In this document: piece after piece, positions 4,527 to 53,217 of the stretch | Layout: the number at the start of each line of letters is the position of its first letter | How positions within the stretch are numbered: the stretch's first letter is position 1 | From: Patellaria atrata CBS 101060 | Taxonomy: Eukaryota | DNA length: 64,000 nt | Direction: 5' to 3' | NCBI GenBank assembly: GCA_010093705.1 | Contig: MU006096.1 | Coordinates: forward strand, 642,004-706,003 | Made by a program: the position numbers and the translations under genes | The notes under the pieces: model-generated | What the model saw: only the letters and a program-made list of their open reading frames with translations | Databases searched by the model: none | Told to the model about the DNA's origin: nothing

Positions 4527-7500
4527 ATGGATGACGCAACAATGGAGAACCACACAGATGCGTCTGTACAAGAGGACGAAATTTCTACAAGCGACGCAAC
4601 TACCAGCGATGTCAACGCTGAGCAAATCCAGACGGATTCTAGATCAGAACCACTTCTAGAGCTCGAATATGAGCCCACAGTCCTTGAATTTACGCGCTTC
4701 CATGGTCTCTCGAAGAACTTCCAAGAAGCGACTTTGAGCAAATGGAGTTTGCAGCTAGACTTTGAAAATGACGACGAGCAGCTCGAACAACTCTTATTCC
4801 CTAGTCTTACGGATTCTAAAGTCAAAGAGCGCCTAGTTATTAACAAGTCTCCAGCTGAGCTTTTAAAGACGATTCTCACCCTATCAGATTGTCCAAGTTC
4901 TACTGATGTTTCCGATATACCAAGAAAGTATGCACAGCTGAAAGTCGAGTTACCCGTTCTAAACACTGAGCCTGAAATGGATATGCTTAAATTCGGATGT
5001 ACTGCGGTGTCCGATTTGAAAGATTTCGGATTCCCCTTAGAAGATATCGACGAAGAGAATGATGAAGGACTGCAGTGGCCGTCGAAGTCTCGACGCTACA
5101 CCACTTCCTGGGACTCACGAGCTAGAGCCGAGAAGCTGAAGGTATCTAGACACGGACTCATGTTCCTCCAGAATTTAATGGGGAGTAACGAAAACCATGA
5201 AAAGGCCATTGTTCAATCTCAAACGGACACTACATACGAAAGGGTAAATCCGTCAATATCTGGTCCGAAATAGCGGCTAATACTAGTAGAGGGCAACGTT
5301 CGAGCCAGTTACGCCACCATTACTTCCACTCAGTCCTCCTTTGAAATACTTCGAGCCGTTCTCTCCTGCAGGCTATCTCGAACCTTGGTCAGACCTTGAA
5401 GATACTACCGCTGCTGAGCTTCGAAATATAGATGAAGAGCTAATGAAGAAGGATGCTATAGTGCCTATCGCTAACGGGGAGGATGGTAATATAATACAGC
5501 AACTGTCGTCCGAAGATATCACCCGAATTTACAGTCCCTTAGTATCAATAGGCAAAAGCGCATCTATATCTCCACAGAAGCGGAAACTTTCTGACCTAAA
5601 GGTCGAAGGCCCACTCACACCACCGATCTTTGATCAGTTGTCGGTCAAAAAAGGGAAATTAGTGTCCTTCCCCGACGTTATTCATGACTTTATACCTAAG
5701 ATTTCTAACCTAGTTGAAAATACAGAGGACCCAATGAACCCAACAGGAGATGTTGATGCATTCTTCAACGAATGTTTTACCCCATTTGCCGAAAAGGCTC
5801 AAAGAGAACTGGAAAATGAACAACTAGTTGAAGCAGACTGCACGAAGAGAGTCAGTGTACCTGAAGTCGAGCAAATAGTACCACAGAGGCCTTGGGAAGT
5901 GTATTGTTCGAAGCCTCGAGGAGGGCCAGTAATCCCGCGGACTGAGCTCGAGGCTCAACGTAAGATGCTGCTGCGGACTAAGCACGAAGATCTACGCCAG
6001 TTCCATCACTGGCATGGTGTGTCAAAGATTGAACGCGAACTCAGATGGAGCCCATTTCCTCCCGAACTAGAAAAGATCAAGTTAGAAGAACAGATCGATT
6101 ATGAAGATCAACTAAACGACTTTTTGAATGGTTTAGATATCCAAGATATCGTTCGTAGTGACTCGCTTACCTGGAACCCGGAAGGGTTGAGGCTATTTGA
6201 CGACAAGGAAGATACCGATGAAGAGGTTGAACCCGACCCGCATATTGAACGTCTAATTGCGTATTTCCGGGGCGGGACTGGGGATATACACCGTACACAG
6301 ATTGATTCAGTCCCCGAAGAGAATCTTACTTCTGCGAGGAGTGAGCTCATTCTCAGACGTATCAATACTGTGAAACAGGACTTCCTTTCGAAGCACGTCT
6401 CTGACGGGAATGCTATAACCAATCATGCTCCAAAAGATAACAATGTTATGTTTGGTAGCAGGTTTTCGGCTGCAGCTGCAATTTCGAATTTCATGTCTCT
6501 GCATGGTAAGAGTAGGACACCGGAGACGGGACCAGTTTCTTCCCAAACAGAGCAGGTTCCAAACCTGGACTCTAAAAGCACAGTTGAAGAATGGACAGTT
6601 CTTCCGACCTCCACGAAGGCCACTCCGCATGTCGCTCAAGCGACACTGCCACCCGGTCTGGCAGTCAAACAGCTGCTACCTTCTCTACCTCTTTCTCCAT
6701 CTCCGATCTCAACAAGCATTATTCTCTCTTCCGACTTGCTTTCACGTCGGTCCTTGATTCGCAGTCTGGAACATTTCTTCACGGGAAATGCATTCATCTA
6801 CCGTGATGATGCACGTATAACACCTCCAATGGTTCCGTCCACTTCCGGGTTTTCAAACCCTAAGGAAGCCGACGAACCTGATATTCTGATATCTCCGGCA
6901 TTAGGGTTGTTTTTAACGACACTACAAAAGATTAAGCAGAGACCGTTGCCAGGTCAAGCCGCTCAGCCAGAAGGGATCAAGAACAGAATTACTGCTATGT
7001 CCTCAAAAGTTGAGAAGTTAATGGTATTAGTCAGTGAAGGCCGGACCGATTATAAGCATTTCAATGGAACGGCCGACTCGATGGAAGACCAACAGGTCAA
7101 TGAATACCGCCTGCTTGAGTCTCGAAATTGTGAGGCGTTATGTGATCTCATAAGTTATTGCACCCTAGTAGATGCCGACGTATATGTGCAGTACGTGCCT
7201 GGTGGTGAGGCTAAGTTAGCACAATGGATTGCTGGACTAGCTACTCGTTTTTCTACATCCAGCGAAGAACAGAACGAATCGCAACTGATACAAGACGAGA
7301 CGCTCTGGGAGCTTTTCCTGCGACGCGCTGGCTTCAATGCTTATGCTGCTCAAGTTGTTCTATCTTCCTTGAAGTCATCTTACGGCTCTGAAGCTGATCT
7401 CCAAAGCAACAGACCTGCTGCTAGGGAGTTATTTGGGCTGCCAGCATTCGTCAATATGACTCCTGAGGAGAGATTAGAAAGATTCCAGGGAGTAATGGGA

Positions 7501-28104: not shown

Positions 28105-28911
28105 TTAAATATCCGGAGGAATATGGAATTTAAACTTCTTATTCGCTCTCTCCGCCGGCCGAATCTCAAACTGATCTCCATGTAATTCAAAAACTAAGCT
28201 CTTCGGTTTCGTCATCTCCGCTTCTACACCATCACCCTCCTTACCCTCCTCCTCTCCCTCCTGATCCCCCACAAACGGAACTTCAAACCTAAACACCGTA
28301 TGCGCCTTCGGAATAGCTACTCTTATTAGCCTCATCCCCAAATCCCACTTTAGGAACTTACTCCACACCCTATCCCCCGTCCCCACAACCACAAAAGCGC
28401 CTCTAGTCTCCTTAACCACGAACCCCCTCAACCCCACCCTAGTCACACACCTGCATCTAACAACCTCAACCTCCGCCCCGTGAAAATCCGCACTCGCCAG
28501 CAACGGGCCCGCCGTATCCTTCACCACGTATCCCCCACCCGGACCACCCAACCCAAGCACATCCCTAATATAACCCGCCCAAATCCCACTCAAGCCCCTA
28601 AAAACCTCATACCTCACCTCCCCGCTCTGCACATCATGAACCCCCAACTTCCTTTTCTCCTTTGCGGACAGCGGTCGCGGTTTCCTCCGCCTCTTTTCCT
28701 TCTCCTTCTCTTTGCGCTCGCGGGCTCTTTGGCGCTGGGTTCGCGCGTCGGGGTGAGTGGAGGGTGTGGCGGGTGGGGACGAGGGACGGAGGAGGAGGGG
28801 CCGGCGGACGATGTGGGAGAGGAAAATCTCGTTGGCGATGTCGGGGGCGTGGGAGCGGAGGAGGAGGTTCAGGGCGGCGTGTTGGGTTTCGGGGGGAGTG
28901 GTGGAATGCAT
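28105..28911 (-). CDS. POP4: RNase P/MRP subunit p29
   Basis: KPRPLSAKEKRKLG, LASADFHGAEVEV, IPKAHTVFRFE, ELHGDQF..RPAERANKKFK. 45-nt in-frame intron 28361-28317. Confidence 0.9.
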   Translation of the reverse strand: MHSTTPPETQHAALNLLLRSHAPDIANEIFLSHIVRRPLLLRPSSPPATPSTHPDARTQRQRARERKEKEKEKRRRKPRPLSAKEKRKLGVHDVQSGEVRYEVFRGLSGIWAGYIRDVLGLGGPGGGYVVKDTAGPLLASADFHGAEVEVVRCRCVTRVGLRGFVVKETRGAFVVVGTGDRVWSKFLKWDLGMRLIRVAIPKAHTVFRFEVPFVGDQEGEEEGKEGDGVEAEMTKPKSLVFELHGDQFEIRPAERANKKFKFHIPPDI

Positions 28912-29394
28912 TGGGAGGTAGAGGCCGTTGTGTTTGGGGGTAGGTATTGTGTAGAGTAGTAAACTAGATTTAATTTCAACAAACAGGTATATTTTGTGCA
29001 TGAGTCGTGCATGGAGCTGTTTGAGCTGTGTGACTCGGGTAGAACGCATGGTCCGAGCCATATCCGAAATCTTGGCATATTACAAAATCTCTTTGAAAGG
29101 GTGTGATATTTTTTGGTCATTAGTTAAACGTTTAGTGATACAATGAATTTATATATTTATCTGAAATCTCGTGGAAAAGTCTCGTAGATTCATGTGCGAT
29201 ATGAAAAATTTTAGATGAGGTGGTAAAAAGTGAAGTTTCCAAAAATGCGACGTTGAACGCAAAGTTGGGCCCGTGCTCTATAGTCACGTGAAGGTGATCG
29301 TTTGTTTAGGGATTCTTCATATTGTACTTCTGAATATCCTCAAACCAAAGGCCCTATTTAATATTTTACTAAGGGGCGGCTGTATCTTCATTTC

Positions 29395-29573
29395 TGTCGT
29401 GATGCAGTTGGTTCTTTCCTTTGTCACTTTCCTTTAGTCAAGTGTTCGAATCCCATCCCCCAACGAACTGATATCACGGCTTAATATTGGAATTATTACT
29501 CCATGAAAAACTAGGCTTTTCTGGACCCTCATCGAAGCCTAGCCTCGATGAGGGTGCTGTTTTGCCTTTTTTT
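29395..29573 (+). ncRNA. Putative Pol III small RNA, copy 1 (A/B boxes, 2x TTTCCTTT(A)GTCA, 3' hairpins, T7)
   Basis: A-box-like TGATGCAGTTGG 29400-29411; repeats 29415-29426 and 29428-29440; B-box GTTCGAATCC 29444-29453; 29396-29413 pairs with 29462-29480; 11-bp hairpin 29525-29555; T7 at 29567-29573. Confidence 0.6.
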
Positions 29574-29577
29574 CTCC

Positions 29578-31941
29578 CTATAGGCGAGATTTTTTTAAAG
29601 CCTTTGCTGTTGCTCCATCTATCCCTTTACCATCTTTGTTCTGATATGCTACATCATCTTTGTTCGCCAACTCAATTACCTTCTCAGCAGCCTCTTCGAA
29701 GTCGTCAAACGCATACAGTGGTAGTCCACTCTCCGTAATCTGAGTAACAGATCATTAGCTCCGTACTCAACGCCCTAATCTGAAGGGAATGGTACTCACT
29801 ATTTGTTGCCCCAGCTTCTCATTCGTACCCCTAATCCTCACCACAACCGGTACGCGCATGTCTAACTCTTCAAACGCCATGATGACTCCTTTAGCAATCA
29901 TATCGCCCAAGGTGAGTCCGCCAAAAATATTCACAAACACGACCTTGACCCGGGGATCCTGTAGAATGAGCTCAAAGCTCTTCTTCACTGTTTCTGATGT
30001 GGCCTTCCCTCCAGTGTCTAGAAAGTTCGCCGCCTTTCCCCCGCGCCGAGCTAGTGCATCAACTGTATTCATGGCAAGTCCGGCACCATTTACTAGAGTT
30101 CCAATATTCGCGGTACTGTCCGTTGGATCATGGAGCTTGATATATATGATGCCATCTTTTTCCGCTTCTACTTCTGGTACTTCAATCGTTGTAATCTTCC
30201 TCAAGGAGTGAATATCCTGCTGTCGCTTTGCGGTCCTAAAACTTGAGTCGTCGAAGGAAAACTTAGGGTTGCTTATAAGGAGATCGTCTGTGTCATTTGA
30301 GACTGATATCTGAGTTTCCAGAGTGAGTGCTTCTCTCTCCTTGAACATGGTAACAAGTGTCTGAATTAGTTTGACTGTCCTCGATTTCGCAACTCTTGGT
30401 GCGGAGTCTAATTGTAGGTACTCTAAGACTTCCGTTATAGTCTGGTTGCTCGGTCCTTCCATATAACTATAGGGGAATGATTTTGATCTTTTACGTATCT
30501 TATTTGGATTTGTTGTGCGTGAAACAATAATACAGGGGCAACGATTGGATCTATCGATGGTGACTGCTAGCAACTGTAATTCTGATAGTTTCGTTGGGGA
30601 TGTTGCAGTCCCAAATCCATACGTTCGTAACAAATCTGAAGACTGATCAGTTCCTAAGTGCAGATTACGCCGCTGTAATATGTTACGTTCCATATTACGG
30701 ACCATAGGACGGCGTCCTATGGTATGGTATCCTCTATGTTGACTTGAAAATGTCGACTGAAATTGGATCAGAAATGATTCGAGTATGAGTATATTCAACG
30801 TACGATGGAGTGATGACTACCGCCATAATGCGAAAGCAAGATTTTCATTACACGACCAAACTTCGCCGGATGATCCACCATTATAACGCCAGCATCTTGA
30901 AGAGATTTATACTTAAATCTCAATTTGGGATCGCCTGGTGACTCGAAGGCACCTGCATGTCCGTAGATCTTGCCTTCTTGCCAGCAATAACCACCAAGTA
31001 AAGCTGCGATTGGCCTATTGTTGTATTAGTCTCGTCGGTCGGGATTCTGATATTATTATCTTACTTTGGTTTCCGTGTACGCTTTTTGTACTCGTTAACC
31101 CATTCAGCAGCATGAATTTCTGTATTCCCCCCAACTTCTCCTATTAAGATTATAGCTTCTGTATCATCGTCTGTCTCCAATGCTGATAGACCATCTACGA
31201 AATCAGTACCTGCAACGATATCACCACCCATGCCTATGCAGAGACTCTGGCCAAGACCAGCGCGCGTCAAAGAAGCAACTGTCTCGTAACTTAGAGTACC
31301 GGATTTCGCTATGATGCCAATGTTGCCAGGCGAAAATGCCGGTAATGGTTGAAATCCAATCCGGCATTTTCCAATAGCTGATATAATACCAGGGGCGTTC
31401 GCACCTACAAGCCTGGACTTTGACTGGCTATTAAGAATCGAATGTATCTAAAGCGGTTCAGATGGCGATGATAGTATACTTTATAGCTAACTTTAAGGCT
31501 TACCCTTAGCATATCGTGAACCGGTATGTGTTCTGCAACCGCCACAATCAATGGTATCTCGGCTTCAATGGCTTCTTCAATCGCAGCAGCTGCATGCTGT
31601 GCGGAGACGAAGACAGCTGTAGCGTCGGGTTTCAATTGCTCCTTCGCTGCTCGAACACTAGGCAAGACAGGTAGACCAAGATGCTCCCCAGTCTTGTTCG
31701 GTGTTACTCCTCCTACGATTTTCGTCCCATACTCGATTGACTGCTTTGCATTGGCTGTTGCTTGCTTTCCTGTAAACCCCTGGTAAAGGACTCGCGTATG
31801 TTTCCCTATTCTAAGATTGGAGATTGTATCTGCGTAGACTTGATGTTTTTGGCTTGTAGAAAAGTTGGCCCGCGAATGACATCTTAAAATTGAAAAGAAT
31901 GGAATTGGTTTTGTGCTGCTATGGAAATGATGGGAAAGCAT
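29578..31941 (-). CDS. Fused succinyl-CoA synthetase alpha + truncated beta subunit-like CoA ligase (716 aa) with C-terminal SRL
   Basis: Exons 31941-31504, 31447-31065, 31014-30804, 30756-29800, 29739-29578 (sum 2151 nt, in frame). Alpha motifs QGFTGKQAT, IIAKSGTLSYE and phospho-His GHAGA; beta motifs VNGAGLAMNTVD, ANFLDTGG, VNIFGG. Confidence 0.85.
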
Positions 31942-32666
31942 CGTACGAAACGGTAACTAAAGAAAGACGAATCTCTTGTAACTGAACACATAAAAAGCTT
32001 TTCACTTCTACCCTGTTACGTACAGGTCGCGTGCTATATAGTAATCACAGTATTTTTAAAGTTACATACTCTTACATACCGTCTATGTAGCCCCAATCTA
32101 TGCTCTAGAAAGAACTTGAGGTGGAAGAAAAGATCATTTCAGAAAAAGGGCCGGAAATATCGGTGGAGGGAAATAACGCTCTCCTCCTAATTATTACGGG
32201 AGGATGCCGTATCCGACCTCGGATAGCCGTCATAGAGATGACGCAGCATTATCTCCTTAATCCTACTGTAATAATAATCATGGCTTTACAAAGGACGTTA
32301 TGGAACGATAATGATAAAGGCTTCGAGTATTCTGTTGATATGTTTTCCAGCTCCCATTCGCGAGACGCCAGTCTAGGTCGAACGGAGCTCAATACGGGCA
32401 ATTTCAGGGACGATCGAGGGGTTCCCAAAGCTGCACCTTTCCTCTCCACTTTTCAATGGTATGAAGGGTCCACAGGCCACGCAAGTGACAATTCAACTCC
32501 TTGCAAGTAGGAAGGCGCGAGTGTAGTGATAGCCTTTGTATATATTTCCCTAACCTCCAATTCTCCGTCGTATCTCTGTGTTCCACGACATCTATCCTCG
32601 CCGTCACCCTAGATACTGTACTATATTTGTATCACTTTCCGTGTGATAAAATAACACAAAATTACC

Positions 32667-39531: not shown

Positions 39532-41535
39532 ATGAGTTACCCACCAAATATAGACGCAATGCGGCTCGGGCGCCTCTCAGCTCTCCTCGAGGATATGAAG
39601 CAAACTGTACTCCAACTGCACGACGAGTTCCATGACTTGACGCAGGAAAACTGGCAGCACATTTTGGACGGTCTCTTCCCCGCTAACGCTTCACTTAACA
39701 CGTCTGCCCACGCGAGACCTGCACCTACAAACGCAGAGACGCAAAAGCGTTTGGTCACGCTGCCTCGCCTAAATATCAATCTTTCACAACAAAATCTGGT
39801 GCCTACCTTTCCTACCAGCAACTCTCCACCGCGAGTTGGAGAACCTACATCCACAAGTCCGTGGCTGGAGCCTGAGTTCACATCGATTAACACGCCATCG
39901 AAGCGAGTGAGAGAGGTTACGCTTGAGCAAGAAGCTACACCGACGAAGACCAAGTCGAGACTTTCAATCAGGCCTGCTGGCACACAGAAGGCAACTCCAA
40001 AACGAACTCCAAGGCACCAATCAACGTCATCACAGAAGACCACGCCCAAGCAAGCTTGGAAACAGACTTTGCAAGACTACATCGCACCTACTCAGAATCA
40101 TACCCCGAACATCGCATCTACACAACCCACTACACCTCAAACATCACCCGTGCGTTCAACCACCTCTGACCCAGAAGTTCCATCGACAACAAGGAATAAA
40201 CGCGTGAGGATTGACTACGCAATTGTAGAACGTCAAGAGATCAAAAATATTCTAGCTTCCACAATCGACGATCCCTTTGTTCTCTTAGACGAGTCAAAAC
40301 TTCCCGTCCGTCCACTCCAACTCGGTGTCTGGGGCCCCGTGAGCACCAAAACCATAATGAACAGACCCTTCGGCCGCGGCCCGGTCATCCGGGGCGTCAA
40401 GGAAGGCCCGATGCCGCTCAAACCTGCTGAAGAAGTGCCGAAGGCGGTGGGAAAGAAGCGGGAGCGTCGTCGTACTCTGGATGGCACTGATGATAACGGT
40501 GAAAGTTCCGCACAAGCTACGAAGAAAAAGACCCCCGAGGCACAAATGATCACCGATAAACCATCTCTCAGCACCCCTCCTGCGCAAAGCGCACCAGAGG
40601 TAGTCACAGCCGAGATGGAGCGCGAAGCGAAGCGCAAAGCTGATCTGCGCGCACGCCATCCCGATCTCTACGCCGCGTCACCGATCAAGAAACGTCGCAA
40701 GGACGAAGGCCTCGAAGGTTCCCCTGTGAATACCCTCATGGGTACCATGGCTACCACGCAGCCACCACCAACACCTTCCAGCAAGACCCTCACAGTCCCT
40801 CCGCGCGTCTCCCACAGCATGCCCATCCCGGCCGACGCGTCCATTCCAAAGACGCCCACAAGGGACCTCACGACCTCGGTTGCGCAGCCAAAACCCGCAA
40901 CTCAGATCCACCAGCTGCTAAGCAGCATCCCGAAATCCCGTCAGCGAGATACCCAGTCCGTTGCCCAAGGCACCACAGCGGGTAGTACACCCACACGCCC
41001 AGACAAAGGGACTCAGACACACATGCTTTCTCCCGGCGGCACCGCGGCTCAATACCCCGCAAGTATGTCCCCGACATCCTCCTCCCAGTGGGGAGTGACA
41101 GATTCCAGTCCCGCGACACCAACCGTACACACATACCTCGACACCTCCACCTTTCCGCCGTCCCGCTCCCTCCTCGCCGGCCTCCTCGGCTCCACCGCAC
41201 ACGCCCGTCCCGCGTCCCGTCCTGCTGTCCCGTTGTCCGCCGCGCCGTGGAACCCGCGTGGGCCTTCCCTCCCGGCGGTTCCGACGACCAATGTGGGTGC
41301 ACGGCAAAGCGGCCAGAGTAGACGAGAACAGGGAAGCGAGGAGGGGTTGGGAGAGAGGGATGCGGGCCGCGAGGCGAGCGCGAGCTGTGGCTACGCCACG
41401 GAGAGCGAGGGGGGGGATACGGGGGATGTGGATGGTTGGGAGGGAGGAATCGTTGTGCAAGTGGGACAGAGACGCGCGGTTTCGGTTATCAGTTTAGGGG
41501 GCTCGGAGAGTGGGAGTGAGGGGGACGGGGAATAG
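39532..41535 (+). CDS. Hypothetical low-complexity Pro/Thr/Ser-rich protein with NLS-like motifs
   Basis: 667-aa uninterrupted ORF with basic clusters (KKRERRR, PIKKRRK). No recognisable domain. Confidence 0.6.
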   Translation: MSYPPNIDAMRLGRLSALLEDMKQTVLQLHDEFHDLTQENWQHILDGLFPANASLNTSAHARPAPTNAETQKRLVTLPRLNINLSQQNLVPTFPTSNSPPRVGEPTSTSPWLEPEFTSINTPSKRVREVTLEQEATPTKTKSRLSIRPAGTQKATPKRTPRHQSTSSQKTTPKQAWKQTLQDYIAPTQNHTPNIASTQPTTPQTSPVRSTTSDPEVPSTTRNKRVRIDYAIVERQEIKNILASTIDDPFVLLDESKLPVRPLQLGVWGPVSTKTIMNRPFGRGPVIRGVKEGPMPLKPAEEVPKAVGKKRERRRTLDGTDDNGESSAQATKKKTPEAQMITDKPSLSTPPAQSAPEVVTAEMEREAKRKADLRARHPDLYAASPIKKRRKDEGLEGSPVNTLMGTMATTQPPPTPSSKTLTVPPRVSHSMPIPADASIPKTPTRDLTTSVAQPKPATQIHQLLSSIPKSRQRDTQSVAQGTTAGSTPTRPDKGTQTHMLSPGGTAAQYPASMSPTSSSQWGVTDSSPATPTVHTYLDTSTFPPSRSLLAGLLGSTAHARPASRPAVPLSAAPWNPRGPSLPAVPTTNVGARQSGQSRREQGSEEGLGERDAGREASASCGYATESEGGDTGDVDGWEGGIVVQVGQRRAVSVISLGGSESGSEGDGE

Positions 41536-42561
41536 GGGTGTGCGGATGAGTGCTGATCTTGGGTTGGTGCGTGTGTGGGGATTCGCTGTCGGGGTTACTT
41601 AGGAGCGGAGAGTACGGGTGAGACGGGTGAGACGGGTGGGGAGGGGGTGAGGGAAAGGGGGCAAGGAGATGTTTGTAGTCATTACAATGATCCTTAGTTC
41701 TAGGGCTGCGGCTTTGTTCACTAGTAGGTGTGTGGAGAGATGGTATTGCTAGGTTCTGTCGGCTGGCGCTTTCCCGTCGCCTTACCGTAGATGCCCGTTG
41801 AGATGGTCGGATTGTTCGGTAGTACCAACCTGTGATATTTCGAAAGAGTACAGTGTGGAGACATTCGAGCGGAGAGTTGCTCGTGGTGTTTTCTGCCGTG
41901 TTGCTTTGAGGTGTGATGTGACTGTGACCCCCTTTTGCTTGGTGATACGATGCCAAGTGGATTGGGAGTTTTGGTACTAACTTTACTAGTTTGGTATTAT
42001 TATTGAGTGGATTCGGTTGTTCTATGATTGATTCTTACTAGTGCTAGTATAGTTGCTAGTGGGATTGGGGTTGGGATACTACTGTGTCTTGTTGGAACTG
42101 GTACCGGGTATTAGACTGATCAGACAGTTTAGTCTGGAAGCAAAAGTTAAGGTCAAAAAGTAACAGTAGAGTAATCAATTAAATCCAAATATATCGTACC
42201 CGGAACCAATTCTCAATCCTCAGTGACTACATCCCGAAATTCAGTGCCCGCTGCAATAAATCAATATACCAATACCCCAAGCACGGTTCTTCTTTCAAGA
42301 TCTGTGATGCGACGGCCAACGGGTGTAACTATATACAAGATAAGATAGCCAAGCACCCCCTGGACCGTTGTATGTCCTGATACTGTGTGTGATCCATTGT
42401 GTGCTCAGCTTCATTAAAACCTTAAAAATCCTGTGGGAGAAAAATAGGACAAAAGAGTACTGGCATGGATCTAGAACCGTATTCCTAAAGTAGAGTATAG
42501 TGGTATAGATCAGCCGTAAGATGGGGATGTTCTGGTTGAGCTTACTATTCTCTTTTTTGGG

Positions 42562-45100: not shown

Positions 45101-45390
45101 TGTTACGGCCACAAGTTGTGAAAGGACGTAGATGGCGAGTGAGGGGAACCACTCGGGAGGACTGCGGACGAGAGTGAGTGACCAGAAGTCACGTGACCTG
45201 GTCGTTCGGTCGTTCGGTCGTTCGGTCGTAGGAGACGACCAAACGACCAACGAGAAATAGGACTGTGAAGAAGGAATACTTAAGGACGCTCCCTTACGCA
45301 TGTATTTAGAATCTTCGTAGTTCTTCTTACCAATAGATTTATCATCTACATTGAATGTTACGGTTTAGAACTTGATTTCGCCTTGTCACA
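45101..45390 (+). mobile_element. Possible solo LTR
   Basis: Begins TGTTAC and ends GTCACA, with an internal TACTTAAG TATA-like box and a GGTCGTTC tandem. Set in TpA-rich DNA. No matching target-site duplication. Confidence 0.4.
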
Positions 45391-49353: not shown

Positions 49354-50238
49354 ATGCACCCGAATCAGCGCGTCCGCCTCTTTGCGCTCCTCATGATCAT
49401 CATCGTCATAACACTCATCTACACCACCTCCTCCGCCCGCCGCACGCGCTCCTCGGATTTCTACGTCAAGACGTCACAAGCGCTGCAAGAGCAGGCCGCA
49501 CGCGCGGCCGACGCCAAAGCCGCCGAAGCCTTCTCGGACGATCAGGTCAAGGCGCGCCTCAGGGAGGCCGAAGAAGCGGCCAAACGGTCTGCGGAGAAGA
49601 AGGGCGCGCGTGTGCAGGAGATCATTTCGGATGAGGCACGCAGAGAGACTGGGAACGAGCGGGAGGTTGTCGGTGGTGCTGCTGGCGATGGTGATGGCAA
49701 GAGTGTCGCAGGCAGGGTGTACCTGAAGCCAGGTGAGAAAGAGACCGTAGATGGGGTCGCGAGGGTAGGAAATACGGGTGATGGGGTTCAAGATGGCCCA
49801 CAACCGGAGACACAGGAGACGCTTAGAGAGCATGAGGTCGAGCAGGAGTTAAATTCTATCCTGAAGAAGAGTCCAAGTGAGTTCATTGATGAGGTTGTCG
49901 TGGGAGGGGTTGAGCGGGGCTAATGAGGAACAGTCATCATATTCTCGAAGACGTACTGCCCGTACTCCAAGAAAGCGAAGCGTATATTCCACCAGTACAA
50001 GATCACTCCAGCGCCGTACATCGTCGAAATCGACGAACATCCCTTGGGTCCCGAATTACAAGCCGCACTTGCCAAGAGCACGGGACGACGAACTGTACCG
50101 AACATCCTAATCAACGGCAAGAGCATAGGTGGCGGTGACGATATCGAGGCTCTGCATGAAAGTGGCAAACTAGTTAATACGGTCAAGAGCATGGGCGGAA
50201 AGCGTATCACCGAAGCCGCCCTAATAGAAGCCTCATAA
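49354..50238 (+). CDS. Monothiol glutaredoxin with N-terminal membrane anchor (Grx6/Grx7-like)
   Basis: TM helix LFALLMIIIVITLIY; intron 49877-49933; FSKTYCPYSKKAK and TVPNILINGKSIGGGDD. Confidence 0.9.
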
Positions 50239-50581: not shown

Positions 50582-50998
50582 ACCCCCTACTTACTACATC
50601 GACACCCCTTCTTAAAACGGGAGGTGACTAACCCAAAGGCAGTCAAATTGCACATCCACGCCGGCGTAAGCCCCTCTTAAGCGGTCTTAGTATAGCATCC
50701 AGATTTTATCACAGATTTAAACTCTTTAGTATAAATACGGTAGGTTAGATTTGTGCTTAGATACGTCATTAGATAAAGTATTAGATATAGCTCAAACACA
50801 TACTTATATACGGCTTTAAATTAGCTAGTAGTTTATAATAGTATATATAAATTTAGCTATACTTAGCGGTAGAATAAGTATACCGTACCTTTGAGCTGAA
50901 AAAGTAATGTTTGGATTTTAGTGCTATGAGATATAAGTTTTGCACGCCCTCTATAATAAAAAGTTCGACTGCATTTTTAGATGTAGTAAGTAGGGGGT
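50582..50998. mobile_element. MITE-like element or DNA transposon remnant with 19-bp inverted repeats
   Basis: ACCCCCTACTTACTACATC (50582-50600) and its exact reverse complement (50980-50998) flank an AT- and TpA-rich interior. Confidence 0.65.
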
Positions 50999-51242
50999 TG
51001 TCGAAATAACAGGTCCCCCCTTTATTACTTCCCTTCACAATACTACTCCTATATTACTGAGGTGTACACTTACGCCCCCATATGCCCACGGATGATGTAA
51101 TTTCGCTCGGAAGTGCGCTTCGGGTGTTGTGACTTTGTGGTGTTGTTATTCCCTGATGTTGTACCTACAAAGGAGTAACCGTTTAGGCAAATCCCATCAC
51201 CAAACTCATCCCTTATAACCACTTAGACGGTGATCACTTTCA

Positions 51243-51394
51243 ATTCTGGCGGCAATGGCTGAGTGGTAATTTTCCTTTGTCATATTTCCTTTAGTCAAAT
51301 TTCCTATAGTCATCAGTTCGAGCCCCGCCTCCGCCAGAATATAAAGTTAAATGCGTTCGCCGGGTTAACTTTCCCTCTACGGAGGTTTTCTTTT
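51243..51394 (+). ncRNA. Putative Pol III small RNA, copy 2 (A/B boxes, 3x TTTCCTWT(A)GTCA, 3' hairpins, T-run)
   Basis: Perfect 10-bp stem ATTCTGGCGG (51243-51252) / CCGCCAGAAT (51331-51340); A-box TGGCTGAGTGG 51256-51266; repeats at 51271, 51285 and 51300; B-box GTTCGAGCC 51316-51324; hairpins AAAGTTAA/TTAACTTT and CCTC-TACG-GAGG; TTTTCTTTT then longer T runs. Confidence 0.68.
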
Positions 51395-51992
51395 GCACTA
51401 TTTTTTCCCCTCTTTTTTTTTTTTTCTTTAACTGTACAAGGTTCTGTTAGGGGTGTTATTTGACTACGCCATTTGTTTTGTTTTTGTTGTGATCCAACGA
51501 TAGAACTCGATTGCTGGACTCTATGTTCGCGAGAGGGTTAGTGGAATAAAGGAGCCTAAGACTTTACATAACGACGTGGAATTTATAGGCGAAGGATCCT
51601 ACGTGGGTTTGTCCGTAGTGTTTCGAGTAGCTATGGTGTGTATATATTCGTTAGTTTCGAGATTTGTAGGGTAATAAACGTTTTGATAGATGTGAGATCT
51701 GCCTTTCTAGCTCCCTTCAGACGTCTATGTAATAAGAAGGTATGGAAACAGATGCGTGATAGGCGGCCCCCGGCCCGCCGAAATAATGAGTGGTGGATAG
51801 CGTATATGTCACTTACGAATCAAGTAGGTAGAACAGTGAACAGTCAAGCTTGAATTTAAAGAAGTAGGCATATATTAATTGGATAGAGGATATCAAACGG
51901 TAGAGAAGGAAATGTTACCGAATAAATATGTTTGATATTGAATTGATATGAAATACTTGTACGGAATACCTGTACCAATCTTCTATTGAAAA

Positions 51993-52858
51993 CTACTGCG
52001 TCTTTCCGTACGAATTGAATAGTGATGCTCCCGGTAGTTTGCGACCATCGCTCAAGGTACGTTCAGTTTTCCGGACATACGCTAGAAGAAAAGGATAGAT
52101 AACATCGGAGATTGTTGTAGTAGTCCACATGAAAACCGAAAACGGAGACATGAAGTACTCGTGTGCTTCCCTCCAATGATACCATAAGATGCCATACCCG
52201 ACTGGAAGACCAAGGAAAGAACCAATGGCTCGGGTTATCCTAGTTAGTTAGTAGGAACCTAAGTATAGTTCATGTGAATGCAAACGTACCAAATACCATA
52301 ACTCACACCTCCGCTATGCCCTCGAGTAAGCAGTTGAGCCAAGCTACTGGTAGATATGTACAACTGGATGATAGCTGCAGTCCAATACCCCAATTCGGTA
52401 GTATCAGGACCCAAACGCCCATGATAGAACTTTCCTTCTTTCCGACCGACATCATTATCCACCCACCATTTCGAAAACGAACCAACGGCCGCAATAGACA
52501 GAAAAGCCAATACGGCAAAAACGACATGTAGATTTTTGGTGATCAGGGGTGAATGGCTCCACTCATTTTTACCGTATTGAAGAAAGCAGTAGATGAGGGG
52601 AATGTCAAGGAGAAGCCAGATGATGAAAACAATCTTCTCGAGAAGTTCTTCGGCGACGAATAAACCCATCACTATTTCCCAGCCGAAATTTAAGGTCAGA
52701 GCTAGTAGAGGCATACCGTAGGATTTGGTTTTGAAAGCTTGCCGGACATGGAGAATGTAACATATAGTCCAGAGAGGTCCCGCAATTGATAATATCACGC
52801 CTGTCATTGGGATAACATAGGATGGGACATGTGGCGGTGGAACATCGTTGGAGCCCAT
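51993..52858 (-). CDS. PaxB/Pyr4-family integral membrane terpene cyclase-like protein
   Basis: LWTICY..V....KTKSYGMPLLALTLNFGWE, WLLLD, RGHSGGVSYGIW, final SDVIYP. Intron 52289-52240. Confidence 0.85.
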
Positions 52859-53217
52859 TTTTGCGGTTGAAGCTGATTGACGAGGTTTGTATCTGTAGGT
52901 TGAAATAATGTTTTTATAGGCGTCCAGCTGCCAAGGAGGGAGCACTTCCAGATTAGTACTACAATACGGCCGTATAGGACGCCTCATGGAGTGCCTTGAT
53001 TTGTGGTATTTACCTTACCGTAAGATCTCACGCCGCTGTGCTTCCGTCATAAATCTAGGTTTTATCGGCCAATTCTAAAGTACAGATGCCGCCGGATCGG
53101 GTCCTCACGGGATACACGGCAAGGTCTAAAGTATAGTCATCGGTATCCGCTCTTCCCGGGCCGAAAACGCGGAAATGGTTTGGGTATCATGTATATTAGA
53201 TTGTCTGATCAACAATA

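Follow-up and report, generated by a model that had tools for sequence, protein, structure and literature searches.

A candidate two-member family of tRNA-derived RNA polymerase III units carrying tandem 12- to 13-nt motifs in Patellaria atrata CBS 101060

What is the stretch of about 190 bases that lies between a POP4 gene and a gene resembling succinyl-CoA synthetase (SCS), and that carries on its plus strand (29355-29573) the signals of a type-2 RNA polymerase III (Pol III) unit, a partial A box among them? An earlier note, made from the sequence, had taken it for the second member of a putative Pol III RNA family. The window, that is the whole stretch of 64 000 nucleotides analysed here, is fungal nuclear DNA. 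The POP4 protein encoded to the left of the element was 94% identical to p29 of Patellaria atrata CBS 101060 with 100% query cover, and the next-best relative, among the best 120 listed of 637 proteins (E<=1e-10, 2262 candidates), was 48% identical. An exact protein look-up with the POP4 gene model gave no identical entry; this and the 6% mismatch are probably due to an intron read through by the gene model. The flanking features are as follows.

28108 to 28911, minus strand: coding region of POP4 (RNase P/MRP p29; gene model, Pfam E 5e-24)
29578 to 29580, minus strand: stop codon of the convergent, fused SCS-like gene (open reading frame 29578 to 29751; Pfam CoA_binding and two Ligase_CoA matches)

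The element, hereafter the 29-kb element, sits in the 666-nt gap that separates these two tandem minus-strand genes, directly behind the SCS gene and at least about 475 nt upstream of the POP4 ATG. The SCS gene itself (29578-31956, minus strand) appears to be an alpha/beta fusion in which alpha-like CoA_binding and Ligase_CoA domains come first and a beta-like Ligase_CoA domain is C-terminal. Two further observations concern the window at large. A short tandem repeat with the 8-nt unit GGTCGTTC is present at 45200-45229 (three overlapping 14-nt copies at 8-nt spacing), and the GC content of 40001-42000 is 0.578 vs 0.42-0.54 elsewhere in the window. The parts of the 29-kb element were assigned by sequence reading, alignment and fold prediction, with TRGCNNAGTGG as the A-box consensus and GGTTCGANNCC as the B-box consensus.

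29355 to 29363, plus strand: TATA-like element TATTTAATA, at about -29 to -21 from the predicted start
29387 to 29399, plus strand: conserved 5' block TTCATTTCTGTCG, aligning to TTCAATTCTGGCG at 51239-51251
29396 to 29413, plus strand: 5' strand of the closing stem, including the A box (fold prediction)
29400 to 29411, plus strand: A-box-like TGATGCAGTTGG, 7/9 specified positions, in the 12-nt form of the tRNA A box
29415 to 29426, plus strand: unit 1, TTTCCTTTGTCA, 12/12 identical to 51271-51282
29428 to 29440, plus strand: unit 2, TTTCCTTTAGTCA, 13/13 identical to 51285-51297
29443 to 29453, plus strand: B box TGTTCGAATCC, 8/9 specified positions of the consensus, lying 44 nt beyond the A-box start
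29462 to 29480, plus strand: 3' strand of the closing stem, AACGAACTGATATCACGGC (fold prediction), without sequence similarity to the 51-kb copy
29525 to 29555, plus strand: perfect 11-bp hairpin ACCCTCATCGA / TCGATGAGGGT, the 3' half of which carries the conserved CCTC-GAT-GAGG (29543-29553)
29543 to 29577, plus strand: conserved 3' end module, comprising CCTC..GAGG, a U-rich stretch, TTTTGC and T7 (29567-29573); 27/38 columns identical to 51374-51411

The motifs listed in the earlier note, namely TATTTAATA, TGATGCAGTTGG, TTTCCTTTGTCA, TTTCCTTTAGTCA, the T7 run and the B-box string GTTCGAATCC (29444-29453), were all found where it had placed them. The pairing it had proposed between GTCGTGATGCAGTT and AACTGATATCACGGC was recovered as the minimum-free-energy pairing, with 14 bp, two G-U pairs and one bulge, and the T7 run does adjoin the stop codon of the convergent SCS-like gene, with a gap of 4 nt (29574-29577).

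A second locus with the same order of parts lies in the same window at 51 kb:

51213 to 51425, plus strand: whole sister copy, with the same part order as the 29-kb copy and three units (core 51243-51406)
51213 to 51218, plus strand: TATA-like TTATAA (sequence reading)
51239 to 51251, plus strand: 5' block (alignment)
51243 to 51252 with 51331 to 51340, plus strand: closing stem (fold prediction)
51256 to 51266, plus strand: A box TGGCTGAGTGG, 9/9 specified positions
51271 to 51282, 51285 to 51297 and 51300 to 51312, plus strand: three units
51315 to 51325, plus strand: B box AGTTCGAGCCC, 8/9 specified positions
51374 to 51385, plus strand: hairpin CCTC-TACG-GAGG (alignment)
51391 to 51396, plus strand: TTTTGC (alignment)
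51401 to 51406 and 51413 to 51425, plus strand: oligo-T, T6 followed by T13 (sequence reading)

Both copies thus present a TATA-like element, an A box, two or three units, a B box, a closing stem, a spacer, a hairpin module of the form CCTC-N3-4-GAGG and an oligo-T run, and their 5' blocks have TTCAWTTCTGKCG in common. The units of both copies take the form TTTCCT-(TT/TTA/ATA)-GTCA and are spaced 13-15 nt apart. The claim that the 29-kb element is a second family member holds on this common order and on the alignment to the copy at 51243, in which the shared units were identical at 25/25 positions; the unit number differs as had been reported, with two units at 29 kb and three at 51243-51406. 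Convergent genes flank the sister copy: on one side a glutaredoxin gene, which ends at 50238, and on the other, on the minus strand, a gene for a Pyr4-like cyclase. The copy is reached only some 680 nt past the nearest stop codon of the minus strand. The product of the cyclase gene (51993-53014, minus strand) is a Pyr4-like terpene cyclase of the transmembrane type (Pfam PF25129, E 1e-36), a hint that a meroterpenoid gene cluster may lie close by. Within the same 1.75-kb gap of the convergent genes, about 250 nt upstream of the 51-kb copy, an AT-rich segment filled with TA dinucleotides (50690-50980) resembles a relic of a repeat degraded by RIP.

The frequency of the motifs was examined in the 64-kb window. 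The string TTTCCTWTRGTCA gave four matches with at most one mismatch against 0.33 expected, a number reached in 0/100 shuffles, and three of the four fell in the two loci. Exact copies of TTTCCTTTGTCA occurred only at 29415 and 51271. With up to two substitutions allowed, units were matched 13 times on the plus strand and 11 times on the minus strand, and the only clustered matches were the five at the two loci (29415-29440 and 51271-51312). The B-box string GTTCGANNCC had five matches vs 1.93 expected; two of these sit 3 nt past the last unit of the respective copy, and the others, at 5906, 20833 and 35812, had no units or boxes nearby on reading. T runs of six or more numbered 16 on the plus strand of the 64 kb, giving P = 0.03 for such a run within 140 nt of a random site, and TATA-like hexamers occurred in the -36..-13 zone of 1.6% of random sites, a pattern picked after the data had been inspected. 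The combination of motifs is far beyond chance, which is excluded as an explanation by these counts.

In Pol III type-2 promoters the distance from A to B box ranges from 31 to 93 nt, with the A box at +8 and the start 10-12 nt upstream of +1 (PMC5356446). The spacing was 44 nt in the 29-kb copy and 59 nt in the 51-kb copy, both inside this range. By the A-box rule transcription would start at about 29381-29384, just ahead of the conserved 5' block, and in the sister copy at 51237-51239, so that the TATA-like boxes of both copies stand about 20-30 nt ahead of the predicted start. The longest internal T run was four in both copies, with none of five or more, and an oligo-T run follows in each (T7 and T6, respectively). 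The Pol III boxes claimed for the 29-kb element were borne out for the B box (8/9, as in the sister copy), for the spacing, for the T7 run and for the TATA-like element; the A box agreed with the consensus only in part, with 7/9 positions vs 9/9 at 51 kb, and is degenerate in having TGAT in place of TRGC. Counting against a Pol III gene family is that only two members were present in the 64-kb window, and the boxes could be an inheritance from a tRNA ancestor that no longer works.

Could the loci simply be tRNA genes or another known RNA? ARAGORN predicted 0 tRNA genes in the 64 kb, and the tRNA model RF00005 was unmatched both at gathering score in the window and at E<=10 in the two loci. The D stem, anticodon arm and T stem were absent from the predicted folds, in which a closing stem surrounds a mostly open loop and the bases flanking the B box are unpaired. 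A search of Rfam, including vault RNA (RF00006), gave 0 matches at gathering score in the window; at E<=10 there were six weak matches per locus (E 0.43-7.7), which represent noise. Box C/D snoRNAs of the snR52 type carry a C box RUGAUGA and a D box CUGA beside a short terminal stem. The candidate sequences at 29 kb, GUGAUGC and CUGA, both take part in a Watson-Crick stem, and the 51-kb copy lacks a C box RUGAUGA and has CUGA only within its A box, so this identity was rejected; snoRNA models scored far under their gathering scores (snoR100 on the minus strand, 16.1 vs 50 bits; SNORD97, 15.2 vs 45). The best explanation of the promoter-like sequences would be that the two loci are paralogous small genes on the plus strand that descend from, or are modelled on, tRNA genes and are no longer tRNAs.

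Conservation was assessed by a block-wise alignment of the two copies, each block being compared with 1000 shuffles. Unit 1 and unit 2 were identical in 12/12 and 13/13 columns, a degree of identity reached by 0/1000 shuffles in either case. The 3' end module, with 27/38 identical columns (reached by 1/1000 shuffles), and the 5' head, with 20/32 (31/1000), were moderately conserved. The B-box block had 8/13 identical columns (191/1000), the shared part being only the GTTCGA..CC core, and the 3' stem strand (11/27; 682/1000) and the spacer (24/62; 798/1000) were at shuffle level. Judged by this alignment, no other part of the element comes near the repeats in constraint. Outside the interval from the 5' block to the T run the two loci were unrelated, so that homology starts and stops where a Pol III transcript would.

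This pattern bears on the possibility that the copies are decaying relics of tRNA-derived, SINE-like elements or pseudo-tRNAs, at most weakly transcribed and without a function for the RNA, comparable to AfuSINE2, ZOD1 and iYGR033c. We regard this as unlikely, if a serious contender. By its description (PMC5063351), AfuSINE2 matches the elements in outline, neither locus has a tRNA fold, and the 51-kb copy adjoins the AT-rich, RIP-like relic at 50690-50980. Neutral decay should, however, be even, whereas the units are 25/25 identical next to blocks at shuffle level, and closing stems have been kept in both copies from different sequences. The copies are not alike over their whole length, as those of a SINE should be, and their repeats lie between the A and B boxes rather than in a body behind a tRNA head. 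Nor was an A-rich or LINE-like tail present, and on inspection of the flanks of either copy no target-site duplications were seen.

Beyond sequence, both copies keep a closing stem. The duplex of the closing stem had a predicted energy of -22.9 kcal/mol at 29 kb, reached by 5/2000 shuffles and by 36/3000 genomic samples of the same geometry, and of -21.7 kcal/mol at 51 kb, reached by 40/2000 shuffles and 75/3000 such samples. The stems are unrelated in sequence, and pairing is kept in both. On the minus strand the 29-kb stem reached only -14.5 kcal/mol vs -22.9 on the plus strand, because it needs G-U pairs, and the fold of the 29-kb head had a z-score of -3.4 on the plus strand (0/200 shuffles) vs -0.2 on the minus strand. 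At 51 kb the head gained modestly over shuffles and about equally on both strands (z -2.4 and -2.0), and the 3' region was unstructured (z ~0). The hairpin at 29525-29555 was similarly stable on the two strands (z -6.3 on plus, -7.1 on minus) and for this reason gives no strand information. A separate observation on this part of the plus strand (29510-29542) is that CUAGGCU before the strong hairpin complements AGCCUAG in the hairpin loop, making a pseudoknot possible; the complementarity may be due to chance, CCTAGG being palindromic. A stem that is kept without its sequence, and at 29 kb on the plus strand only, resembles the outcome of selection on RNA, which for a comparison of two predicted folds is suggestive but not proof.

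The strand preference also speaks to a reading in which the 29-kb sequence acts in the minus-strand SCS mRNA, as a 3' UTR motif or structure that takes in the strong hairpin found 20 nt beyond its stop codon. We consider this very improbable, even though the region must lie in or beside the SCS 3' UTR and the minus strand forms the hairpin at 29525-29555 just as stably (z -7.1). It would leave the closing stem weak on the strand concerned (-14.5 vs -22.9 kcal/mol; z -0.2), the sister copy stranded about 680 nt past the nearest minus-strand stop, and both promoter boxes, like the T runs, on the plus strand. Still less credit can be given to the idea that the loci are MITE remnants, with the closing stem as terminal inverted repeats and the units as subterminal, transposase-binding repeats. 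The geometry is suggestive of such elements in that inverted repeats of 10-15 bp flank a core of 85-98 bp with short direct repeats; members of a MITE family share their terminal repeats, however, and here the stems are unrelated and only the interior is shared, with the conserved 5' block and 3' module outside the inverted repeats and no target-site duplications seen when the flanks were read.

If the repeats are the constrained part, they might act in DNA rather than RNA. The repeats, read on the minus strand as TGAC-N2-3-AGGAAA, would then bind a transcription factor, perhaps together with a B box occupied by TFIIIC only, as at ETC loci, and the element's target would be the POP4 promoter, or it would form a boundary; the RNA would be immaterial. 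An exact site of 12-13 bp with the fixed halves TTTCCT and GTCA would suit a sequence-specific protein, as would the location upstream of POP4, and TFIIIC-only boundary sites are described in two sources (PMC5356446, PMC4228148). We nevertheless hold this reading to be improbable. The spacing of the half-sites varies between 2 and 3 nt, which DNA-binding dimers tolerate poorly, and the closing stems, the plus-strand preference that arises through G-U pairs, the oligo-T runs and the 3' module would be left unexplained. Moreover, the 51-kb copy lies between convergent genes and has no promoter to serve; no Pol II promoter is to be expected in such a position, a difficulty for any view of the repeats as promoter elements.

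Occurrences of the unit pair elsewhere were also considered in this connection. A metagenome scan for the pair returned three loci, one bacterial-looking and coding and two fungal-looking and intergenic as judged by sequence reading, and none of the three had an A box, B box or oligo-T beside the units. The two fungal-looking loci, in which the pair precedes an apparent ATG and is without a B box, would be in keeping with a DNA element; by rough estimate three matches are about what chance would give, with about three expected if the collection comprises ~10^12 bases (an assumed size), and the scan carries no weight. As an observation in its own right, in these two loci CCTTTGTCA-N4-5-TTTCCTTTAGTCA reads in the sense direction towards an apparent ATG with an intron behind it, at a distance of about 170 nt in one (L001, 401-428) and about 25 nt in the other (L003, 149-175), both on the minus strand of the locus. 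This may be a chance occurrence or a distinct motif of promoters or 5' UTRs. A scan of prokaryote genomes with the strict unit pair gave 0 matches, and the family was thus seen nowhere beyond the window in these two scans. Literature searches with the motif strings (bioRxiv, PMC) returned only unrelated uses such as primers and no description of such a family, and the strings were absent from one supplementary file of PMC5063351.

Several identities for the unit were considered and set aside. A mimic of a 3' splice site, an Mcm1/homeodomain half-operator and Ssd1- or Nova-type motifs all fitted poorly, and a complement to the CR-I region of RNase P fitted one unit junction only.

Taken together, the two loci are, as far as can be judged at the level of DNA sequence, a real, non-random two-member family with a set of type-2 signals, in which the A box of the 29-kb copy is partial, and an RNA-like pattern of conservation. 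That they are lineage-specific, tRNA-derived genes for Pol III non-coding RNAs, each with a loop presenting a repeated motif, is a reading about as probable as its negation. Under this Pol III reading TFIIIC would bind the B box at 29443-29453 and the weaker A box at 29400-29411, and TFIIIB would be placed on the TATA-like element at 29355-29363. Pol III would start near 29381-29390 and stop in the T7 run at 29567-29573, yielding an RNA of about 185-190 nt. In the folded RNA a closing stem of 14 bp would hold a loop, for the most part unpaired, that shows UUUCCU-N2-3-GUCA twice (three times in the 51-kb paralog); beyond the stem would come a spacer and then the terminal hairpin and a U tail. 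The strictly conserved repeats would be the working part and may offer an RNA-binding protein or a complementary RNA several docking points at once; the fixed halves, the linker of 2-3 nt and the unit spacing of 13-15 nt appear to fit a reader of single-stranded RNA better than a DNA-binding dimer.

The position of the element suggests a further, likely effect that would be independent of the RNA. The bound Pol III machinery may form a roadblock 4 nt behind SCS and upstream of POP4, and could limit read-through from SCS into the POP4 promoter. Pol III complexes of yeast prevent Pol II read-through as well as 5'-extended transcripts of the gene downstream; one of them stands at ZOD1, a tRNA relic that lies upstream of RPM2 (PMC4228148). 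The RNA would in addition be antisense to the SCS 3' UTR. This antisense relation, proposed in the earlier note, is forced by the geometry: with only 4 nt between the T7 run and the SCS stop codon, a 3' UTR of SCS (itself a predicted feature) overlaps the element as soon as it exceeds 4 nt. The most elaborate form of the hypothesis is possible but doubtful. It would make the pair a lineage-specific Pol III RNA family of a Dothideomycete fungus in which the promoter scaffold of a tRNA gene and a closing stem display two to three invariant copies of UUUCCU-N2-3-GUCA. The array would be a multivalent decoy, or else a scaffold, to which a sequence-specific RNA-binding protein or a complementary RNA attaches; its capacity would depend on the number of copies, and the Pol III complex would at the same time keep Pol II neighbours apart. 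A function for the variable valency is pure inference.

A Pol III RNA with a core of tandem single-stranded motifs would, if true, amount to a natural sponge or scaffold design, and mutation of the units or of the B box would provide an easy experimental handle. Even without a role for the RNA, the 29-kb element would be a non-yeast case of a tRNA-derived Pol III unit set between two genes, 4 nt behind the first and upstream of the second, a placement that bears on the insulation of tandem genes in compact fungal genomes. Few fungal Pol III transcripts beyond tRNA, 5S, U6, SRP RNA and RNase P RNA are described (PMC5356446), and a limited literature search on filamentous ascomycetes found none described except SINE-like elements.

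The nearest precedents are tRNA-gene-derived Pol III loci and leader-type A/B promoters of yeast, namely ZOD1, iYGR033c (ETC9), RPR1 and SNR52, which possess both boxes but no functional tRNA, as here, and in which the boxes may lie outside the functional RNA (PMC5356446). Pol III binds or weakly transcribes the yeast loci, where occupancy and transcription have been shown; in the Patellaria pair both are predicted. ZOD1 also blocks 5'-extended RPM2 transcripts and so shapes neighbouring Pol II transcripts (PMC4228148). The yeast loci differ from the present pair in having neither a tandem conserved motif of 12-13 nt between the boxes nor a paralog pair with a conserved 3' module. AfuSINE2 of Aspergillus fumigatus (PMC5063351) resembles the pair in belonging to a filamentous ascomycete, in its size of 140-493 bp, low copy number and degenerate A and B boxes, and in having a 3' part unrelated to tRNA before an oligo-T tract and no cloverleaf. 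It has target-site duplications of 4-14 bp (PMC5063351), unlike the Patellaria pair, in which none were seen and the copies agree only in blocks and have kept a closing stem.

In vault and Y RNAs the paired 5' and 3' ends enclose a variable, largely unpaired central loop and a U tail is present; vault RNA has internal A and B boxes in or beside the strands of the stem. The predicted RNAs are alike in the stem that pairs the ends, the open loop and the U tail, and differ in that they have no Rfam match, that the RNA runs about 90 nt past the stem and that the loop consists of a tandem repeat. They lack the D arm and T arm of a tRNA, and the 3' stem strand of the 29-kb copy lies 13 nt farther from the B box than in a tRNA; what they share with tRNA genes are the sequences and the spacing of the A and B boxes and, in the 51-kb copy, an acceptor-like stem that is nearly in place.
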